Shown here one piece after another: positions 41,126-48,666 of a DNA stretch of 64,000 nucleotides. Location of the stretch: IMG/VR virus record IMGVR_UViG_3300037478_000510, positions 4,092-68,091 of that record; one strand, given 5' to 3'. Source of the stretch: a virus (taxonomy: Duplodnaviria > Caudoviricetes). The position numbers and the translations under genes were made by a program. Each line of letters begins with the position of its first letter. Position 1 is the first letter of the stretch. Under the pieces are notes generated by a model. It did no database searches, was not told the DNA's origin, and worked only from the letters and a program-made list of their open reading frames with translations.

Positions 41126-41181
41126 CATGTCATAACGACGAGCGGTAGCAAAAGCGGGCTGAAGCGAAGGTTGCGCACAGG

Positions 41182-41190
41182 TTATCCACA
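41182..41190 (+). promoter_or_regulatory. DnaA box
   Basis: Exact TTATCCACA, intergenic. Confidence 0.55.
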
Positions 41191-41266
41191 GGCTGCAGCC
41201 TGTTGCCGACATGTTCGGGGCAAGGTAGGATGATGCTACCGGCAAGGGTTAGGAGTAAATCGAAGG

Positions 41267-41764
41267 ATGACACCGAAACAGGAAGCGTTCGCACGGGCTG
41301 TAGCGACCGGTAAGGTGTCACTGGCCGAAGCCTACCGCAGCGCGTATACCACAGGGAATATGGCAGCGGCTACCGTGAGGAATGAAGCCTGTAAATTGAT
41401 GGCGCGCCGCGATGTCACCGCTATGGTGATGCAGTTGAAGGAAGAAGCGGAGCGCGCGGTAGTGGCCTCTGCCCTGTCTGAGACGGACTACGTTCGCCAG
41501 CGGTTGAAGCATTTTGCCGAGCACGCAACGCCTGCAGATGCCCAGAAAATCAGAGCTACGGAGCTACTTGGAAAGACTCAGGGCATGTTCAAGGATGTGG
41601 TCCTTGGTGACCCTGACGACGCCAAGGACGCCAAGCAAATCCGTGCCGAGATGGCTGCCGTCCTGGCGAAGCTGGAGCATGCGGAAGCCACCAAGGATGA
41701 ACGTGTAGACCCCGCTCTGATTACTGCTGAACATGTCAACGAGAACGACAAGCACCTGAATTGA
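41267..41764 (+). CDS. terS: terminase small subunit
   Basis: MTPKQEAFARAVA.G.S.AEAYR.AY...A.KL...V...ATELLGK..GMF pattern. Confidence 0.85.
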   Translation: MTPKQEAFARAVATGKVSLAEAYRSAYTTGNMAAATVRNEACKLMARRDVTAMVMQLKEEAERAVVASALSETDYVRQRLKHFAEHATPADAQKIRATELLGKTQGMFKDVVLGDPDDAKDAKQIRAEMAAVLAKLEHAEATKDERVDPALITAEHVNENDKHLN

Positions 41765-41848
41765 CCCCTTTCACTGTACGCATATCAGGTACCCCTCAGG
41801 TGCCTGATCGTAAGCCATTGATATCATGTGATATCGTTAGTATGTCAT

Positions 41849-41876
41849 TGTGCCCATAATAACCATTATGTTAAAT
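41849..41876 (+). other. dif-like XerC/XerD recombination site
   Basis: TGTGCCCATAA-TAACCA-TTATGTTAAAT: XerD arm identical to E. coli dif, XerC arm 9/11, 6-bp spacer. Confidence 0.8.
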
Positions 41877-42454
41877 GGTGAGCGTGAGACCGTATAAGTA
41901 TGACAATTGAGTCAGCCTGTCCATACACGAACTGTGATTCATGTATTGCGATTCACGAATTGACGATAGTCCAGGTGGAACGCTGCGGGCTATCGTGAGC
42001 AGGCTACCGGGCCGCCCTTGCGGCAGGCTGCCGATGGTCTGAGCGCCACGGTCTGTGGGTGGTGTCCGGCGTTGGGCCAGAGCGTTTCCGGAGGGAGGGG
42101 GAGACCCCCTTTCGTGCCTGGGACTCCTGCCTACTATGAATAGTATCCCACAGCCGTAATCAGCAAGTTTTCACATCGTATAATCTGGTAATCGGATGAT
42201 TTTGTATTACACACTCGATCGTCTTTCCAGAAATTTTCCAAAAAAATTCTCCATAAAATTTCCCACTGATTTTCTCATTAAATCACCTGATGACTTAATC
42301 AGAAATCGTTCCAGGGATGGACGATGTATGCGAAGCATGGGGGGGCCTGGGGGCGGCGCCGCACGCCGTCTTTTTGGCGTGCAAGCCACTCCCCCAGCGT
42401 ACCAACGAAGGACCCCTTCACATAAAAAATAGGCTCTTTTTTGTCCGCAAAGCC

Positions 42455-42474
42455 TGTGGATAACCTGTGGATAA
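42455..42474 (-). promoter_or_regulatory. two tandem DnaA boxes
   Basis: TGTGGATAA at 42455-63 and 42466-74 (reverse complement of TTATCCACA), 11-bp period. Confidence 0.7.
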
Positions 42475-43071
42475 CTTTTTTCGAGTTACCGTTTATCTGG
42501 AAATCACTACCGTTCGTCTGATTTCTCTCGACCATTTTCCGATTTTTTGGCATCTTTCTTGCCATCTTTCTGAAGCTTTCTTCCTGAGTCAGACAGGCTT
42601 TCGTTAAGAATCGTTCCTGACGAATCAGAAAGTAGCCCCTCCCGCTTCGCTTCGGGGCAGCGGGAGGGAAACGAGTCTGAAAGCCTGCGTCACATGTCTC
42701 TCGTAAGTATCTATCGAAAGCTTTCAATACGCGCGCGGATTATCTACTTAAGTAGCACGATTCATGCCAATCGCCCATTTTCCCTGGGCGCGCTCTTCTG
42801 AATTTCCCCTGCTGGCACAGCGTTTGCATCCGTGATGGCGGTATTGCATAGATTGTGTGATTGAGTTATTCTGTCTGTAAGGTCGCGCAGGCATGCAAAA
42901 CGGGAAGCGCTCCAGGGACGGACGCTGTACGCCGTAGGCACCTCCTCCAGCTTCGGCTGGCAAATCCTGCGATGTGGCTTCGCCATACAGCGCACATCCC
43001 TGTGGCGCTTTCTGATGAGGTCAGGGTGTGGATGCGACCTTTTTTATTCATTCATTCGGAGGTAAAACCCG

Positions 43072-43572
43072 ATGGGCAAGGCAACCGTATTTATAGCAAA
43101 CACCCAGCGTGTGGTAGAGGCCCTGAACCCATGCCTCAATGAGGGGCATCGCGCTTATGCGGTTGGGCAGGCGAAGGCTGGAGCACGATTCGAGCGCATC
43201 GTGGTGTTGGCGGACCTTCGGGGGCGGCAGGCGCGCGAATGGTTCAACCATTTTCAGCTTTGCTTGGCACCCAACGGCTCGATTGTGCATGATCAAAATG
43301 GTCAACTTCCTTGGAGTAAAACCCAAATGGACAGCCAGCAGATCATCAGCAACATCGAAACCTTGATCAACAAGGCCGCCAAGGCCCAGGACGCCACCGA
43401 CGCGATGAAGTTCGCCCAGGCCGCGCTGAATGCGGCACAGGCCCTACCGATTCTGCTCGCTATTCATGACGCGCCGCAGGCCACAAACGCGCAGGACTCG
43501 TTCGAGGAGGCGCTGACGGCTATGCAGGCGCCAGCGTACCCGCAGGCCCCATACCATCTGGGGAGATTGTGA
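43072..43572 (+). CDS. hypothetical protein (possible second internal start at 43327)
   Basis: GGAGG RBS; a second GGAG precedes MDSQQII. Confidence 0.55.
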   Translation: MGKATVFIANTQRVVEALNPCLNEGHRAYAVGQAKAGARFERIVVLADLRGRQAREWFNHFQLCLAPNGSIVHDQNGQLPWSKTQMDSQQIISNIETLINKAAKAQDATDAMKFAQAALNAAQALPILLAIHDAPQATNAQDSFEEALTAMQAPAYPQAPYHLGRL

Positions 43573-43778
43573 AGGGTACGCACTATTTGGTGCGGCGCTC
43601 CCAGGCCCGCTGGACCTATGAATGGCCGTGGCAGTTGGGGTGGCGCCCAGGCTGGTTGTTCAGTAGGTGGCAGGGGCGGTTACCGAACCTGCAGGGCAAG
43701 CCGGTCGACCACCATGGTTTTCGCCTGCTGGGCCTGCGCCATGATTCATGGATCGTGTTCGAACCCCACCCTTCCTGA
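43569..43778 (+). CDS. Trp/Arg-rich hypothetical protein
   Basis: GTGA coupling. Confidence 0.4.
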   Translation: MKGTHYLVRRSQARWTYEWPWQLGWRPGWLFSRWQGRLPNLQGKPVDHHGFRLLGLRHDSWIVFEPHPS

Positions 43779-43857
43779 CATGTCCCGAATTACAGGATGA
43801 CCGCTTGACTTAGTCACCCGATCATGCTTTACTCTGTGGGTTATTGAGGAGACCGCT

Positions 43858-44027
43858 ATGGAGAAGGACAACGTCATGATCCGTGAGCTGTGCTGCGGCA
43901 GATTGTCGAGGCGCTGTACCTCCTGGCCTACGATATCCGCTTCAAGAAGGATATCAAACAGGCCGAAAATGCGGTCTGTGCGCTGCATGATGCCCTGCGT
44001 GAGCGGATCGAGAAACTGGAATCTTAG
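43858..44027 (+). pseudogene. small gene with an apparent 1-nt frameshift at ~43886 (or sequencing error)
   Basis: GAGGAG-ATG MEKDNVMIRE continues naturally as AVLRQIVEALYLLAYDIRFKK...KLES* in another frame that ends before the next RBS. Confidence 0.45.
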
Positions 44028-44038
44028 AGGAGACCGAG

Positions 44039-44287
44039 ATGAATGAGAAAACCAACGAACGGATCGAAGCCGAGAAGGCGGCTGTCAACAGCATGCGCGG
44101 CTCTGTGGTGGCCATGCGCAAGACCCTGGATCGGGTGGAGGCCCTGGAAGAGGCGCTAAATTCCCTGATCAGCCGGATGGAGAGCATGAAGCACTACATC
44201 CCTGAATCCGCCTACAGATACAACAGCAGCATACGGGCGCACGAAGAGTTCGAAGGGGCGCTGGCTAAGGCGCGGAAAGTGCTGTGA
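44039..44287 (+). CDS. hypothetical coiled-coil protein
   Basis: AGGAG RBS. Confidence 0.6.
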   Translation: MNEKTNERIEAEKAAVNSMRGSVVAMRKTLDRVEALEEALNSLISRMESMKHYIPESAYRYNSSIRAHEEFEGALAKARKVL

Positions 44288-44393
44288 TCGAGCCGACGAA
44301 ATTCGACGCTGAGATTGAGGCGCTGGAGGCCACACCAAGCTGACCCCGCACCGCCATCGTCAGATCGCTTCACGGCCCGGTTACGACTTCTGG

Positions 44394-44624
44394 TTGCTGC
44401 ACCACGCCGGGCATACCGAGTACATCGGTCGCCACAGCGGTAATGCTCACTGTCCGCAGTCATTCCGCCTGTACGACTTGAGTAATTTGGGGCTGACCGA
44501 AAGCGACTTGGCTTACGGAGATGGCGCGATCATGATGTGGGAAGGCGGCCGCTGGAACGGTTGGCGTGAAGCTGAGTTACGGCAGGCCATCGAACACTAT
44601 ATTCACAACGGGAGAAAGAAATGA
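44394..44624 (+). CDS. hypothetical protein (start uncertain)
   Basis: Stop coupled to the next ATG. Confidence 0.4.
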   Translation: MLHHAGHTEYIGRHSGNAHCPQSFRLYDLSNLGLTESDLAYGDGAIMMWEGGRWNGWREAELRQAIEHYIHNGRKK

Positions 44625-44959
44625 GTCAACATTATGTGGAACCAGAGGCGCAGCAGGCGTATCAGGTGGGTGACGCTGTAGGTCGTGGCAAAGTCCTTGG
44701 ACCGGCCAGCAAGAGCACCACGTTCGACAACCTGACGCATCAGATCAACGATGAATTGGATGCCTGCGAAAAGACTCTCGCGCACCTGATGCAGACACTG
44801 CAACCGGTGCTGATGAATGAGTCGGACGAGAAAACGCCTCCGCCAGGGCCTGAAGGCGCCATGCTGACGGAGCAGTTGCGGAACATGCGCCACCTACTGG
44901 GCCGGGTGACGGATTTTCGGCGCAGGCTGGATGGGCTGTCCGGGCGGGTGACGCTGTGA
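44621..44959 (+). CDS. hypothetical protein
   Basis: GGAG RBS; coupled genes. Confidence 0.6.
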   Translation: MSQHYVEPEAQQAYQVGDAVGRGKVLGPASKSTTFDNLTHQINDELDACEKTLAHLMQTLQPVLMNESDEKTPPPGPEGAMLTEQLRNMRHLLGRVTDFRRRLDGLSGRVTL

Positions 44960-45189
44960 GCCGTGGCTTGGTGTGGTGCATCAGCAAGGTGCATGAGGTG
45001 GCGCTCGATTTGCGTGAGCCGCAGGCGGGTTCCAGCCTGGAGCATCAGGCGAAGAAGCTGGACGAGGTGGTCGAATCGCTGGAGTCGATCAACGACAAGC
45101 TGAATGAACTCTTCGACAAGGTCACCAGCAACGCCCTGATGGATCTCAGAAATAAAGCCATCATGAACGTCCATGGTACTGACGTATGA
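44956..45189 (+). CDS. hypothetical coiled-coil protein
   Basis: GTGA coupling. Confidence 0.5.
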   Translation: MSRGLVWCISKVHEVALDLREPQAGSSLEHQAKKLDEVVESLESINDKLNELFDKVTSNALMDLRNKAIMNVHGTDV

Positions 45190-45392
45190 TCGTCGGCATG
45201 CGTGATTTCTCGCTGGAGTACAACCGGCTGCTGCAGGCGGTCAGCCGCCTCACTGGCGAAGAATTCACCCCGATCAACGCGGGCGAGGTGGCTGGCGATT
45301 GCACCGGCGACACCATCGCGGAAGCCGCCGTCAAGGCCCTGAGCAACCGGCTGAAGCTGGAGCAATACCTGCTCATGCAGGGGCGCCTCTGA
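45186..45392 (+). CDS. hypothetical protein
   Basis: ATGA coupling. Confidence 0.55.
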   Translation: MIVGMRDFSLEYNRLLQAVSRLTGEEFTPINAGEVAGDCTGDTIAEAAVKALSNRLKLEQYLLMQGRL

Positions 45393-45418
45393 TGCTATGA
45401 TTGACATGTCTGTGCTAT

Positions 45419-45514
45419 AGTTCGCTTGAATGACCCTGCTCAAGCAGGTCTCCTCACCGCACCGGGCACCCCCCACATACCGTCCGGTGTTGAGCAGGGT
45501 CACTCAAGCGAACT
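45419..45514 (+). repeat. 25-bp inverted repeat (1 mismatch) with a branched loop, between an extended -10 and an RBS
   Basis: 45419-45443 pairs with 45490-45514; inner CACCGG/CCGGTG stem; TG-C-TATAGT at 45413-21. Confidence 0.75.
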
Positions 45515-45524
45515 GGAGGTGGAC

Positions 45525-45671
45525 ATGGCGATGGGTTTCATTGATGTGGCGGTACCCTTCATCGTACTGACTCTGTTCCTGCTGTTCCTGTGCCACCAAC
45601 GGCTGGCCAAAAAGGACGGCAAAACCTTCTACACGCGCTACTTCGGCTGGATCGCCCGTGAAAGCGAGTGA
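45525..45671 (+). CDS. 48-aa single-pass membrane protein
   Basis: GGAGGT RBS; hydrophobic helix followed by a basic tail. Confidence 0.6.
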   Translation: MAMGFIDVAVPFIVLTLFLLFLCHQRLAKKDGKTFYTRYFGWIARESE

Positions 45672-45753
45672 GCAGGTTCGCTACTGCCTGCTGGGCTTGC
45701 TGATCGGGATGGCCCTGGCTCTGCTGACGCTGGTGGGTTGGCTCAACCGATGA
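45658..45753 (+). CDS. 31-aa membrane peptide (not in the ORF track)
   Basis: MKASEQVRYCLLGLLIGMALALLTLVGWLNR; TGA overlaps the next ATG. Confidence 0.4.
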   Translation: MKASEQVRYCLLGLLIGMALALLTLVGWLNR

Positions 45754-46004
45754 GTCGGCGCGGCACCATTCGTATTCCAGCGATGCAGTGGGCTGAAGAA
45801 GGCATGTCGAACCTCAAGCGGGCCTTGCGCAAGGTGGGGTTCCATGAGATCAGGTTGATTTCGACGTACAACGATCACACGGTCCTCATTCATGGTGAGT
45901 GTGACCAGTTCCCTGACACCGATGGCCCACCCCCCGAATATATCCTGCAGAAAATAGGTGAGGAGTACCTGATCGTCGGACCGCGTGCGACTGCCGTCGG
46001 TTGA
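45750..46004 (+). CDS. hypothetical protein
   Basis: ATGA coupling; overlaps the terL start. Confidence 0.55.
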   Translation: MSRRGTIRIPAMQWAEEGMSNLKRALRKVGFHEIRLISTYNDHTVLIHGECDQFPDTDGPPPEYILQKIGEEYLIVGPRATAVG

Positions 46005-48666
46005 CGACCTGGCGCGGCTGCCGATCGAGGAGCAGCGCCGCTTCCTGACGCTGGCCAAGCAACTGGCCGAGCACGAAGCCGCCGCCAAGGCGCGTGGCAA
46101 GTTCATCGACTATGTCGAGTACATGTGGCCGCCCTTCATCTCCGGGCGCCACCACAAGGTCATCGCAGACGCTTTCGATCGGGTCATTGATGGTAGTCTG
46201 AAGCGTCTGATCATCGCGCTTCCACCGAGACATTCCAAGTCGGAATTTGGTAGCTGGCTGCTGCCGTCGAAGTTCCTTGGGCACTACCCGGACCGCAAGA
46301 TCATTATGGCCTCGCACAGCGCCGACCTGGCGCAAAGCTTTGGTCGTCGGGTGCGCAATCTGGTCGATTCAGCCCCTTATCAGCGCGTCTTTCCGGGCAC
46401 TCAGTTGATGGCCGACTCCAAGGCGGCTGGGCGCTGGAGCACCTCCAAAGGCGGCGAGTACTTCGCCATCGGTGTGGGTGGTAATGTGGCGGGTCGTGGC
46501 GCGGACTTGTTTATGATGGATGATTTGCATTCTGAGCAAGACTATATCTCCGCTTTAGGTGGTGACCTAAGCACCTTCGACAAGACTTATGAATGGTATA
46601 CCTCCGGCCCGCGCCAGCGCCTTCAACCCAAGGCGGCGATGGTACTGATTGGAACAAGGTGGTCCACGCGGGATGTGCAAGGCCGTTTGATCCGCGCCAT
46701 GACCGAGCCGGGCGGTAAGCGTGAGCAGTGGGAGATTATCGAGTTCCCGGCCATCCTCAACGAAAAACCGTTGTGGCCGGAATTCTGGCCGCTGGAAGAG
46801 TTGCTGGCGATCAAGGAAACCCTTCCGGCTGCGCAGTGGAACGCCCAGTACCTCCAAAATCCGGTGATGGAAGAAGGCGCCCTGATCAAGCGCGAGTGGT
46901 GGAAAATCTGGACTGACGACAAGCCGCCGAAATTCGACTACGTCATCGACTGCTGGGACACCGCCTTTCGCAAGACGCAGATTTCCGACTACTCGGCGCG
47001 TACCTCGTGGGGAGTGTTCTACCGGCCCAACGAGAAGGGTGAGCAACGTGCCAACATCATGCTGCGGGATGCTGAGCGCGGCCGCTGGGAATTCCCCGAA
47101 CTAAAGCGGAAAGCCGCTCAGCGCTGGAAAGAGGTGCAGCCGGATTCATTGATTATCGAGGGCAAGGCGTCGGGCGACCCGTTGGCGCAGGAGTTGCGTG
47201 CGATGGGCGTGCCGGTGACGGTGGTCACGCCGACCCGTGGCAGCCGGGCCGATCCCAATGATAAGATTCACCGGGTCAACGCTATTACTGACATGTTCGC
47301 ATCAGGCATGGTATGGTGCCCAGAGACCCGCTGGGCGGACGAGGTGAAAGAGGAGTGTGCGGCGTTCCCGCGCGGTGATCACGACGACTACGTGGACACA
47401 TGTCTCGCCCCGGAAACAGGAATTATAACTGAGCGTGGTGTGGTGCCGATTAGTGAAATACAAGAAGGCGATCGGGTTATGACGCACAAGGGGCGTTTTC
47501 GTCCCGTCTTGGGTGTTGGTTCGCGGCGCTCCGATCATTGTTATCGGCTGAAAGCAAAAGGCTTGGAAGAGATCAGGATTACCGGCGAACATCCGGTGCG
47601 GGTGATGCAGGTGGCGGCGCCACAAGTTTCGGCGAAAGAATGTCGTGGTGTGCGCTGGGAGTCTGTTGCGAACCTGCGGCCGCGCCCGACGTATACGTAC
47701 CAGAGGGACGGAAAAACGGTCACTTCGCAGCGGCGGGTGAAACATGATGCTTTGGTGCTTCCGCGCCAACAAGCTGAGACGGTGAGCACACGAATCGACT
47801 TACTGGATTATGCCCCAGAAGCGGAAATTCGTGACGATGTGTTGGTTTTGCAGTGGCGGCAGCCGAGCCATTGCACATGGAAAAATCCGCGCGAAATAGT
47901 GGTAGGTCGTTTTATTGATTTGGATTATGAGGCCGGTTGGTGTTTTGGCCTGTTTGCTGCTGAGGGCTGTGTATCCAGAGGTTATGTTCATTGGTCGTGT
48001 GATCGTCTTGCTATTGAACGTGTGCAGCGGTGGGTTGCGCGTGATCTTGGGCGGGATTTAACGGTCACTGAGAATGGCAGTGTTCATTGTATTACAGTTC
48101 GTAGTGCACCAGTTGCTGGGCTGTTTAAAACATTCGGGTATTTGGCAGAAAACAAAAAGGTGCCTGGATGGGTGTTCTCATCCGGGGATGCTTGTGTTGC
48201 CGGGTTTGTGGCTGGGTTTGCGCATGGCGATGGTTATCGGCGAGGGCATAAGGTAACAGCCACGTTTACGTCTACATCTTTGTTGTGGGGAATCCGCCTT
48301 TTATTGGCTCGCTTGGGTATTCCGGCGTGGATTGGTACCACGAAGCCCGGCGGTAGACGTGAAGTGTTTGGACGGATTTGCGAATGCCTGCCGGCGTATC
48401 GCTTGGACTGGAGCGATAGAGACAGCGGCCACGCGGTAGTGACGGGTGAATACATCGGCACGCACATAGAGCGTGTTGATCGGGAGGAAGGTGATTTTGA
48501 GGTATGGAATTTGCGGGTCGAGGAAGATGAAAGTTATGTTACCGTTGGCGGCACGGTGCATAATTGTGTCATGGCAATGAGCCGGTTTCGTAATGGCGGC
48601 TTCATCCGGCTCGACACCGATCTGGAAGATCAGCCGCGTCGCAAGCGCAGCGCGAACTATTATTGA
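45985..48666 (+). CDS. terL: terminase large subunit (intein-containing)
   Basis: Walker A PPRHSKS, Walker B FMMDD, IGTRW, RNase H-like CWDTA...DYSA, IIEGKASG, FP.G.HDDYVD. Confidence 0.95.
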   Translation: MRLPSVDDLARLPIEEQRRFLTLAKQLAEHEAAAKARGKFIDYVEYMWPPFISGRHHKVIADAFDRVIDGSLKRLIIALPPRHSKSEFGSWLLPSKFLGHYPDRKIIMASHSADLAQSFGRRVRNLVDSAPYQRVFPGTQLMADSKAAGRWSTSKGGEYFAIGVGGNVAGRGADLFMMDDLHSEQDYISALGGDLSTFDKTYEWYTSGPRQRLQPKAAMVLIGTRWSTRDVQGRLIRAMTEPGGKREQWEIIEFPAILNEKPLWPEFWPLEELLAIKETLPAAQWNAQYLQNPVMEEGALIKREWWKIWTDDKPPKFDYVIDCWDTAFRKTQISDYSARTSWGVFYRPNEKGEQRANIMLRDAERGRWEFPELKRKAAQRWKEVQPDSLIIEGKASGDPLAQELRAMGVPVTVVTPTRGSRADPNDKIHRVNAITDMFASGMVWCPETRWADEVKEECAAFPRGDHDDYVDTCLAPETGIITERGVVPISEIQEGDRVMTHKGRFRPVLGVGSRRSDHCYRLKAKGLEEIRITGEHPVRVMQVAAPQVSAKECRGVRWESVANLRPRPTYTYQRDGKTVTSQRRVKHDALVLPRQQAETVSTRIDLLDYAPEAEIRDDVLVLQWRQPSHCTWKNPREIVVGRFIDLDYEAGWCFGLFAAEGCVSRGYVHWSCDRLAIERVQRWVARDLGRDLTVTENGSVHCITVRSAPVAGLFKTFGYLAENKKVPGWVFSSGDACVAGFVAGFAHGDGYRRGHKVTATFTSTSLLWGIRLLLARLGIPAWIGTTKPGGRREVFGRICECLPAYRLDWSDRDSGHAVVTGEYIGTHIERVDREEGDFEVWNLRVEEDESYVTVGGTVHNCVMAMSRFRNGGFIRLDTDLEDQPRRKRSANYY
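47401..48564 (+). mobile_element. intein with LAGLIDADG endonuclease (388 aa) in TerL
   Basis: Begins CLAPET, ends TVHN, +1 Cys; GLFAAEG and GFAHGDG dodecapeptides; VWNLRVEEDESY block F; AT-richer than the exteins. Confidence 0.9.

Follow-up and report, generated by a model that had tools for sequence, protein, structure and literature searches.

The locus analysed here raises the question of why a large tailed phage should carry, beside its packaging genes, a sequence resembling the sites on which the bacterial recombinases XerC and XerD act, and with what partner such a site would recombine. The textbook carriers of XerCD sites are chromosomes, small plasmids and small ssDNA phages without an integrase. 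The users of XerCD described so far comprise chromosomes and plasmids (cer, psi and the xrs of large replicons; PMC11724359), filamentous and tailless Vibrio prophages (PMC11630473) and gokushoviruses (PMC7062461), and a literature search returned no description of Xer sites that lie in virulent-looking large tailed phages or within terminal repeats, or that have an IHF site as partner.

Sequence of the Xer site

The 28-bp element at positions 41849-41876 of the window (i.e., the whole stretch of 64,000 nucleotides under analysis) reads TGTGCCCATAA-TAACCA-TTATGTTAAAT on the plus strand, letter for letter as given in the earlier note that drew attention to it. Known xrs are composed of an 11-bp XerC arm, a 6-8-bp central region and an 11-bp XerD arm, the inner 5 bp of the arms being palindromic, CATAA/TTATG (PMC11724359). 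All of these features, including the inner CATAA/TTATG palindrome, are found in the element, as in other members of the dif/cer/psi superfamily. Compared with E. coli dif (reference sequence as listed among the xrs by Fournes et al. 2025, PMC11724359), the XerD arm is closer than the XerC arm (Table 1), as expected of xrs, and the central hexamers, TAACCA and TGTATA, differ at 4 of 6 positions.

A degenerate pattern allowing up to 3 mismatches matched the window only once, at this site, and had no match in 100 dinucleotide-preserving shuffles, which rules out a chance match. The site is further the sole match in the whole 68,091-bp virus record, and looser scans of the entire genome yielded neither a second site nor a pair of half-sites. 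A folded attP of the CTX type, with two inverted sites in a hairpin, can be dismissed, as there is a single site with no half-site nearby. By its sequence, the 28-bp element is a genuine XerC/XerD-type site, which these proteins would be expected to bind and recombine.

Table 1. Features of the terS-terL region and the Xer site, in window coordinates
Feature	Position	Strand	Remarks
Exact DnaA box	41182..41190	+	within 12-bp motif GTTATCCACAGG (41181-41192)
terS (small terminase subunit)	41267..41764	+	phrog_51, phrog_1595; homologue directly 5' of terL in relatives
Lineage-specific insert between terS and terL, 4.2 kb	41765..45984	+	in relatives, terL lies within ~0.5-1 kb of terS
IHF consensus TATCAATGGCTTA	41811..41823	-	fits WATCAANNNNTTR; 25 bp from XerC arm
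XerC-binding arm TGTGCCCATAA	41849..41859	+	9/11 vs E. coli dif; GTGCC-ATAA form common to psi-type plasmid and phage-plasmid sites
6-bp central (strand-exchange) region TAACCA	41860..41865	+	NNNCCA type, cf. psi GATCCA
XerD-binding arm TTATGTTAAAT	41866..41876	+	11/11 vs E. coli dif
Two tandem exact DnaA boxes	42453..42474	-	CCTGTGGATAA x2 read on the plus strand
terL (large terminase subunit, with intein)	45985..48666	+	phrog_38; Terminase_6C, Hint_2, LAGLIDADG_3

The carrier phage

The window spans bases 4092-68091 of an IMG/VR virus record with a length of 68,091 bp and a rating of complete; the genome is that of a complete 68-kb podovirus-like tailed phage. The 127-bp repeat at the ends of the record falls within a gene and is probably an assembly overlap and not the physical genome ends. 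The genes for terS, the intein-containing terL, the portal, capsid and tail proteins and a 2,724-aa polyvalent protein lie on the plus strand; the primase-helicase neighbourhood, Erf, an exonuclease, several HNH endonucleases and a TasA/TIGR locus are found on the minus strand, with the RusA and primase-helicase genes themselves being on the plus strand. The nearest cultured relatives are the HTVC023P-type pelagiphages, the Roseobacter phages CRP-901/902 and similar podoviruses, with a portal identity of 33-44%.

The earlier observation that no integrase was in view extends to the complete genome, in which neither the tyrosine nor the serine recombinase profile (PF00589 and PF00239) has a match at E<=1. 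Additionally, no ParA (AAA_31), ParB, S24 repressor or plasmid Rep was recognised in the genome. The sole HTH match in the genome is weak and lies in an HNH endonuclease. The presence of an intein and several homing endonucleases is typical of virulent phages. The phage appears virulent, with the reservation that many of its genes are ORFans.

A plasmid-type rather than a chromosome-type site

The earlier note had designated the site as a chromosome-like dif. This designation does not hold, in that the central region and the XerC arm are of the plasmid psi type and no sampled chromosomal site matches. In a sample of 201 Gammaproteobacteria (in the GTDB sense, including Burkholderiales), the pattern CATAA-N6-TTATGTTAAAT retrieved 63 chromosomal sites, 49 of which have TGTATA or TATATA as their central region and none of which has one ending in CCA. 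Comparison of the 6-bp spacer with candidate host dif sites, which had been suggested as a check, hence gave no counterpart of TAACCA (0/63). Further, the 22-bp core with TAACCA had no match in 185,579 bacterial species genomes (one genome per species), and the two results together rule out a copy of the host dif. The gamma- or beta-proteobacterial host proposed earlier is, in turn, compatible with the exact XerD arm, found in 59 of the 201 sampled Gammaproteobacteria, and with the presence of the same core in Ralstonia phages (see below).

The site falls in the psi-like class because its NNNCCA central region and its GTGCC-ATAA XerC arm fit the sites of plasmids and phage-plasmids. The psi site of pSC101 has the central region GATCCA, and the ArcA-type sites of ~48-kb enterobacterial plasmids read GGTGCCGATAA with CGTCCA or CGACCA (PMC11724359). 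Plasmid sites from Serratia, Providencia and Mesorhizobium display GAACCA, GACCCA and TATCCA, with XerC arms of the GTGCCGATAA or GTTCCCATAA type. The exact TAACCA site was not found among the PLSDB plasmids, the nearest forms being TATCCA and GAACCA. Phages also furnish examples: Yersinia phage vB_YpM_39 carries a pECO-b75-type site with its accessory sequence next to HigB, and Vibrio phage K303, which carries ParA, has a site with TGCCCA. Judged by these comparisons of sequence, the site is of the plasmid (psi) type and not of the chromosome type.

The resemblance to psi of pSC101 and to the sites of pECO-b75-type phage-plasmids (~48 kb, enterobacterial; PMC11724359) covers the 28-bp NNNCCA layout, the dif-like XerD arm and the GTGCC-ATAA XerC arm, and it extends to the carriers, which in each case are extrachromosomal replicons without a recombinase of their own. 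Unlike these, however, the phage site has no visible ArcA/PepA accessory sequence, and an IHF consensus adjoins its XerC arm instead; moreover, its carrier is a virulent-looking podovirus without partition or plasmid-replication genes. Inspection by eye of the 160 bp upstream of the site, a stretch that partly overlaps the 3' end of terS and in which the IHF consensus lies instead, revealed no TAACA-type repeat of an ArcA/ArgR-type accessory sequence, and a non-enteric host could use accessory factors other than ArcA/ArgR. As for chromosomal dif, the arms are shared with the E. coli site, but the centre is TAACCA in lieu of TGTATA, and the phage site adjoins a putative origin as opposed to lying opposite it. 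Chromosomal dif also lies where KOPS converge and is FtsK-dependent; in the phage only 4 GGGNAGGG motifs occur, 2 directed toward the site and 2 away from it, too small a number for a polarity to be judged.

Absence in relatives and the terS-terL insert

Conservation in related phages, which the earlier note had itself named as a test, is not observed: the Xer site is absent from all the relatives checked. A dif-like site was detected neither at the 80 portal-related nor at the 36 terS-related loci; 5 related records taken whole, one of them a complete genome of 82 kb, had none, and nor did 7 MAG contigs assigned to bacterial bins. Even relatives at ~55% portal identity have no Xer site. These results rule out a conserved trait of the family. 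Because these relatives have no dif-like site and terS and terL, close together in relatives, are split by 4.2 kb here, the Xer site was acquired specifically in this lineage, at one border of an accessory insert.

The site occupies the left edge of this insert, 85 bp downstream of the terS stop codon. The insert has a lower G+C content than the rest and consists of ~1.3 kb without convincing genes, followed by ~10 small ORFan genes, none of which has a PHROG or Pfam match; the first of them has no homologue among 5.8 billion proteins. The DNA of the region shows no similarity to cultured phages, and no known RNA or tRNA was found in the gap by the Xer site. All three exact DnaA boxes are embedded in the 12-bp motif GTTATCCACAGG, as a tandem pair and one inverted copy 1.27 kb apart, and an A/T tract lies near them. 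These 12-bp motifs could be host DnaA sites, or alternatively an operator or iteron of a phage protein. A further element of 35-40 nt occurs three times in that part of the gap whose ORFs are doubtful (42291-42331, 42898-42932 and 43023-42984), with two direct copies and one inverted that are 77-78% alike.

The same core in other tailed phages

The exact 22-mer recurs in 18 IMG/VR contigs, which on the basis of flanks and DNA similarity represent seven lineages unrelated to one another and to the present phage, with G+C contents from 34 to 61% and differing outer XerC arms. All seven encode tailed-phage genes (e.g., TerL, portal, tail fibre or primase-helicase), and in them the 22-mer is non-coding and situated upstream of terminase genes or beside the primase-helicase. 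An integrase is absent in five of the records, one of them complete, and one lineage (L005) has an integrase of its own.

Among cultured phages, the lytic, T7-like Ralstonia phage RpT1 (OK274245.1) has a perfect XerC/XerD-type site with the exact TAACCA core, once in each copy of its direct terminal repeat of 208 bp, by the terminase genes (positions L253:82-109 and L257:2162-2189 of the extracted loci), and related Ralstonia phages have TCACCA sites within 100-300 bp of the ends of their records. In the lytic E. coli myovirus rV5 (DQ832317.1, ~105,142-105,168; L267:1501-1528), a TAGGTA centre is flanked by dif arms identical to those of E. coli; the site lies between two converging transcription units, in a gap of 2.6 kb that is free of genes, and relatives of rV5 also have both arms intact around TAGGTA. 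A near-IHF motif is present ~30 bp upstream of the rV5 site. A BLAST match in a Kayfunavirus proved not to be a proper site.

The broader pattern CATAA-NNNCCA-TTATGTTAAAT was matched by 87 IMG/VR contigs. TAACCA is the commonest hexamer in this set, with 18 of the 87 contigs and 8 different outer arms, alongside 26 other hexamers; as one of 27 NNNCCA variants, albeit the commonest, its status as a unique standard is weakened. Among unselected viral dif-like sites, 9 of 119 are of the NNNCCA form.

Features flanking the sites

The association with IHF seen at the present site extends to other phages. An exact match to the consensus WATCAANNNNTTR, mostly in the form ATCAATGACTTA, lies at most 150 bp from the site in 20 of 51 dereplicated NNNCCA viral lineages, as against 4.4% of windows drawn at random from these contigs (p about 1e-14, binomial). 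When separated by site type, it accompanies 18 of 53 sites with other non-chromosomal central regions as opposed to 1 of 18 of the chromosome type, the latter being at the background level. In the class, the motif keeps fixed offsets, starting at -18 to -27 or +40 to +54 from the first base of the site, i.e., 12-25 bp from either arm, and the spacing in the present phage is about one helical turn beyond the commonest one. Exact DnaA boxes within 700 bp are modestly enriched, being found at 9 of 83 non-chromosomal-type viral sites versus 3.3% of background windows.

Further, G/C homopolymer runs of at least 6 within 300 bp of the site were found in 47 of 96 lineages, compared with 9.8% of background windows; the runs consist of G on the XerC side and of C on the XerD side, and are mostly opposite the IHF site. 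Near the non-chromosomal viral sites (IMG/VR loci L020-L136 and L271-L332), one to three stretches of 6-9 G are frequent within 20-100 bp, invariably on the strand reading toward the site, and two forms recur: G8-9 followed by TC, and GGGGGT-GGGGGG-CAAGGGG. These runs could serve as cohesive-end sites or form an accessory element of an unknown kind. The present phage has only GGGGGAGACCCCC, ~220 bp from its site.

Such neighbourhoods raise an architectural reading, whereby XerCD and IHF by a cos/pac site or an origin would aid the assembly of the terminase or replisome without any recombination. The location of sites by terS and terL, within the RpT1 terminal repeat or close to DnaA boxes is in keeping with it, as are the cohesive-end-like G-runs 20-100 bp away on the side opposite IHF (47/96 lineages). 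We nevertheless consider it very unlikely, as we know of no precedent for such a role of XerCD-IHF, the present phage has no G-run of at least 6 near its site, and such a role would not require the central region to stay competent for catalysis.

The flanks of the viral sites bear traces that would be expected of natural Xer-mediated joints, arising either by integration or by exchange: in several groups of viral contigs one flank is at least 90% identical and the other is unrelated from the edge of the site outward. Instances include L023/L051 versus L107/L125, L075 versus L029/L068/L086/L129, and L294/L303 versus L314. In one TAACCA lineage, lineage B, a variable segment of 0.9 to 1.5 kb abuts the XerD arm, with both sides of it being 97-99% identical; its far border has no second Xer remnant.

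These arrangements bear on the possibility that the site serves the exchange of cassettes or modules: co-infecting phages or plasmids with the same central region would cross over at it and thereby trade accessory DNA (in this phage the 4.2-kb ORFan insert) or whole blocks of genes. The placement of the site at the exact left edge of the insert splitting the otherwise adjacent terS and terL, the abutting variable segment of lineage B and the location of the site at module borders in 8 of 8 lineages all speak for such exchange, and an identical central region would make unrelated phages compatible partners. A resemblance can be drawn to the pdif modules of Acinetobacter plasmids, in which Xer sites border exchangeable accessory DNA. 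The border location is alike, but those modules have two inverted sites while the phage has one only, and the far end of its insert shows not even a degenerate second site. Moreover, the far border of the lineage-B segment is a plain gene boundary, and, with 27 kinds of NNNCCA hexamer, TAACCA is the mode and not a standard. On balance, we regard exchange as unlikely.

Alternatively, the site could be a relic without function in the phage, brought in by DNA of plasmid or phage origin, as might be thought from its absence in relatives and its location at a low-G+C ORFan insert. However, in a genome poor in AT the XerD arm and core are preserved without a change, the adjoining IHF site lies one helical turn off the spacing usual in the class, and recurrence in at least 8 lineages argues for selection. 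Taken together, these features render a relic decidedly unlikely.

Taking the phages together, we tentatively propose that tailed phages, virulent ones included, might share a class of Xer sites that is widespread but has gone undescribed, with the present phage, RpT1 and rV5 as members. The class would be marked by a non-chromosomal centre, IHF at a fixed 12-25 bp and often a polar G-run on the opposite side, and by a location beside terminase genes or in terminal repeats, and host XerCD-IHF would serve to join, circularise or resolve phage ends, in the manner of a borrowed Cre/lox, or to swap gene blocks.

Proposed mechanism and partner of the site

Lacking a recombinase, the phage would rely on host XerC and XerD to act on the arms, and, as TAACCA differs from the TGTATA/TATATA of chromosomal dif, the partner would be another phage copy. 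The reading that we favour, to which we accord slightly less than an even chance, is that host XerCD, with assistance from IHF, carries out recombination between copies of the phage and thus interconverts circles, monomers and multimers, with both binding and catalysis being predicted from the sequence. The phage lineage might have acquired a psi-like xrs with, or at the edge of, the 4.2-kb accessory insert by the packaging genes. Host XerC and XerD would then bind the two arms, IHF would probably bend the DNA at the adjacent consensus site, and the productive partner would be a second copy of the phage site and not the chromosome. One outcome could be that multimers of circular replicative DNA are resolved or formed; another, if the site were in a terminal repeat as in RpT1, that terminally repeated ends are joined or circularised.

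The whole reaction would amount to a host-supplied counterpart of the Cre/lox system of phage P1, in which one site per genome cyclises terminally redundant DNA and resolves dimers of the plasmid prophage. The function proposed here is the same, but P1 encodes its recombinase and the present phage would borrow XerCD from the host.

The points in favour of recombination between phage copies are the intact arms, the recombinase-less genome, the psi-type match, the recurrence in other phages, the IHF spacing and the nearby DnaA boxes and A/T tract. Additionally, the phage encodes Erf, exonuclease and RusA recombination genes, and recombination by these would generate multimers. Against it, lytic phages package from concatemers and have no obvious need of multimer resolution, relatives without the site evidently manage without it, and an accessory sequence of the ArcA/ArgR type is not seen upstream. 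The earlier suggestion that XerCD either resolves multimers in a plasmid-like state or integrates the phage at dif is thus sustained in part: recombination between phage copies fits better than integration, but a stable plasmid state is unsupported, with no partition, repressor, plasmid-replication or lysogeny gene being recognised.

The integration alternative supposes an attachment site of the IMEX type, i.e., integrase-less lysogeny by XerCD at host dif, as in VGJ-type filamentous phages and enterogokushoviruses. The attP of the former and the dif-motif of the latter share with the present case an integrase-less virus and one double-stranded site with a spacer unlike the host's (PMC7062461). 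The intact state of both arms is compatible with this mode, phage dif-motifs with such deviating spacers do integrate (PMC7062461), and the one-sided flank identity in several IMG/VR groups of the non-chromosomal type resembles integration junctions. Those viruses, however, are small ssDNA phages integrated at dif, whereas the carrier here is a 68-kb tailed phage for which no integrated relative was found and which has no repressor or lysogeny gene and instead contains homing endonucleases and an intein.

The search of bacterial genomes for related prophages at dif, which the earlier note had recommended, gave none in isolate genomes and no integrated copy bordered by dif or hybrid sites, a weak negative in view of the one-per-species sample; the only bacterial-bin occurrences of the phage family are the 7 MAG contigs. 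The 22-mer, which would be kept at any junction, is absent from all 185,579 species genomes, thin as a sample of one genome per species is. Further, the same core is found in the terminal repeat of a lytic T7-like phage, RpT1, and in the integrase-bearing lineage L005, and TAACCA has homology to TGTATA/TATATA over only 1-2 bases on the XerC side. Integration at dif is hence possible but less likely than recombination between phage copies, and we assign it a rather low probability.

If the sites are functional, many phages would depend on a host recombinase for the forms of their genomes, which would constitute a new host-dependency factor, and the sites could offer a route to carrier states or mosaic evolution as well as a marker of host range. 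The cultured examples rV5 (E. coli) and RpT1 (Ralstonia) make function directly testable.

Other observations on the carrier genome

The terL product, at 893 aa, contains Hint_2 (residues 472-533) and LAGLIDADG_3 (residues 737-795) past its nuclease domain, and its tblastn matches to relatives span ~470 residues; it looks like a terminase that holds an intein with a homing endonuclease inside. The protein encoded at window positions 21318-22181 has the label 'transposase' in PHROGs (phrog_4285). Homologues of this phage family's portal, with 26-33% identity, occur in the plasmid records NZ_CP133271.1, CP113869.1 and AP017967.1 (57-109 kb), from the protist endosymbionts Ca. Bealeia and Ca. Megaera, and these portal-bearing 'plasmids' may be phage genomes or phage-plasmids.
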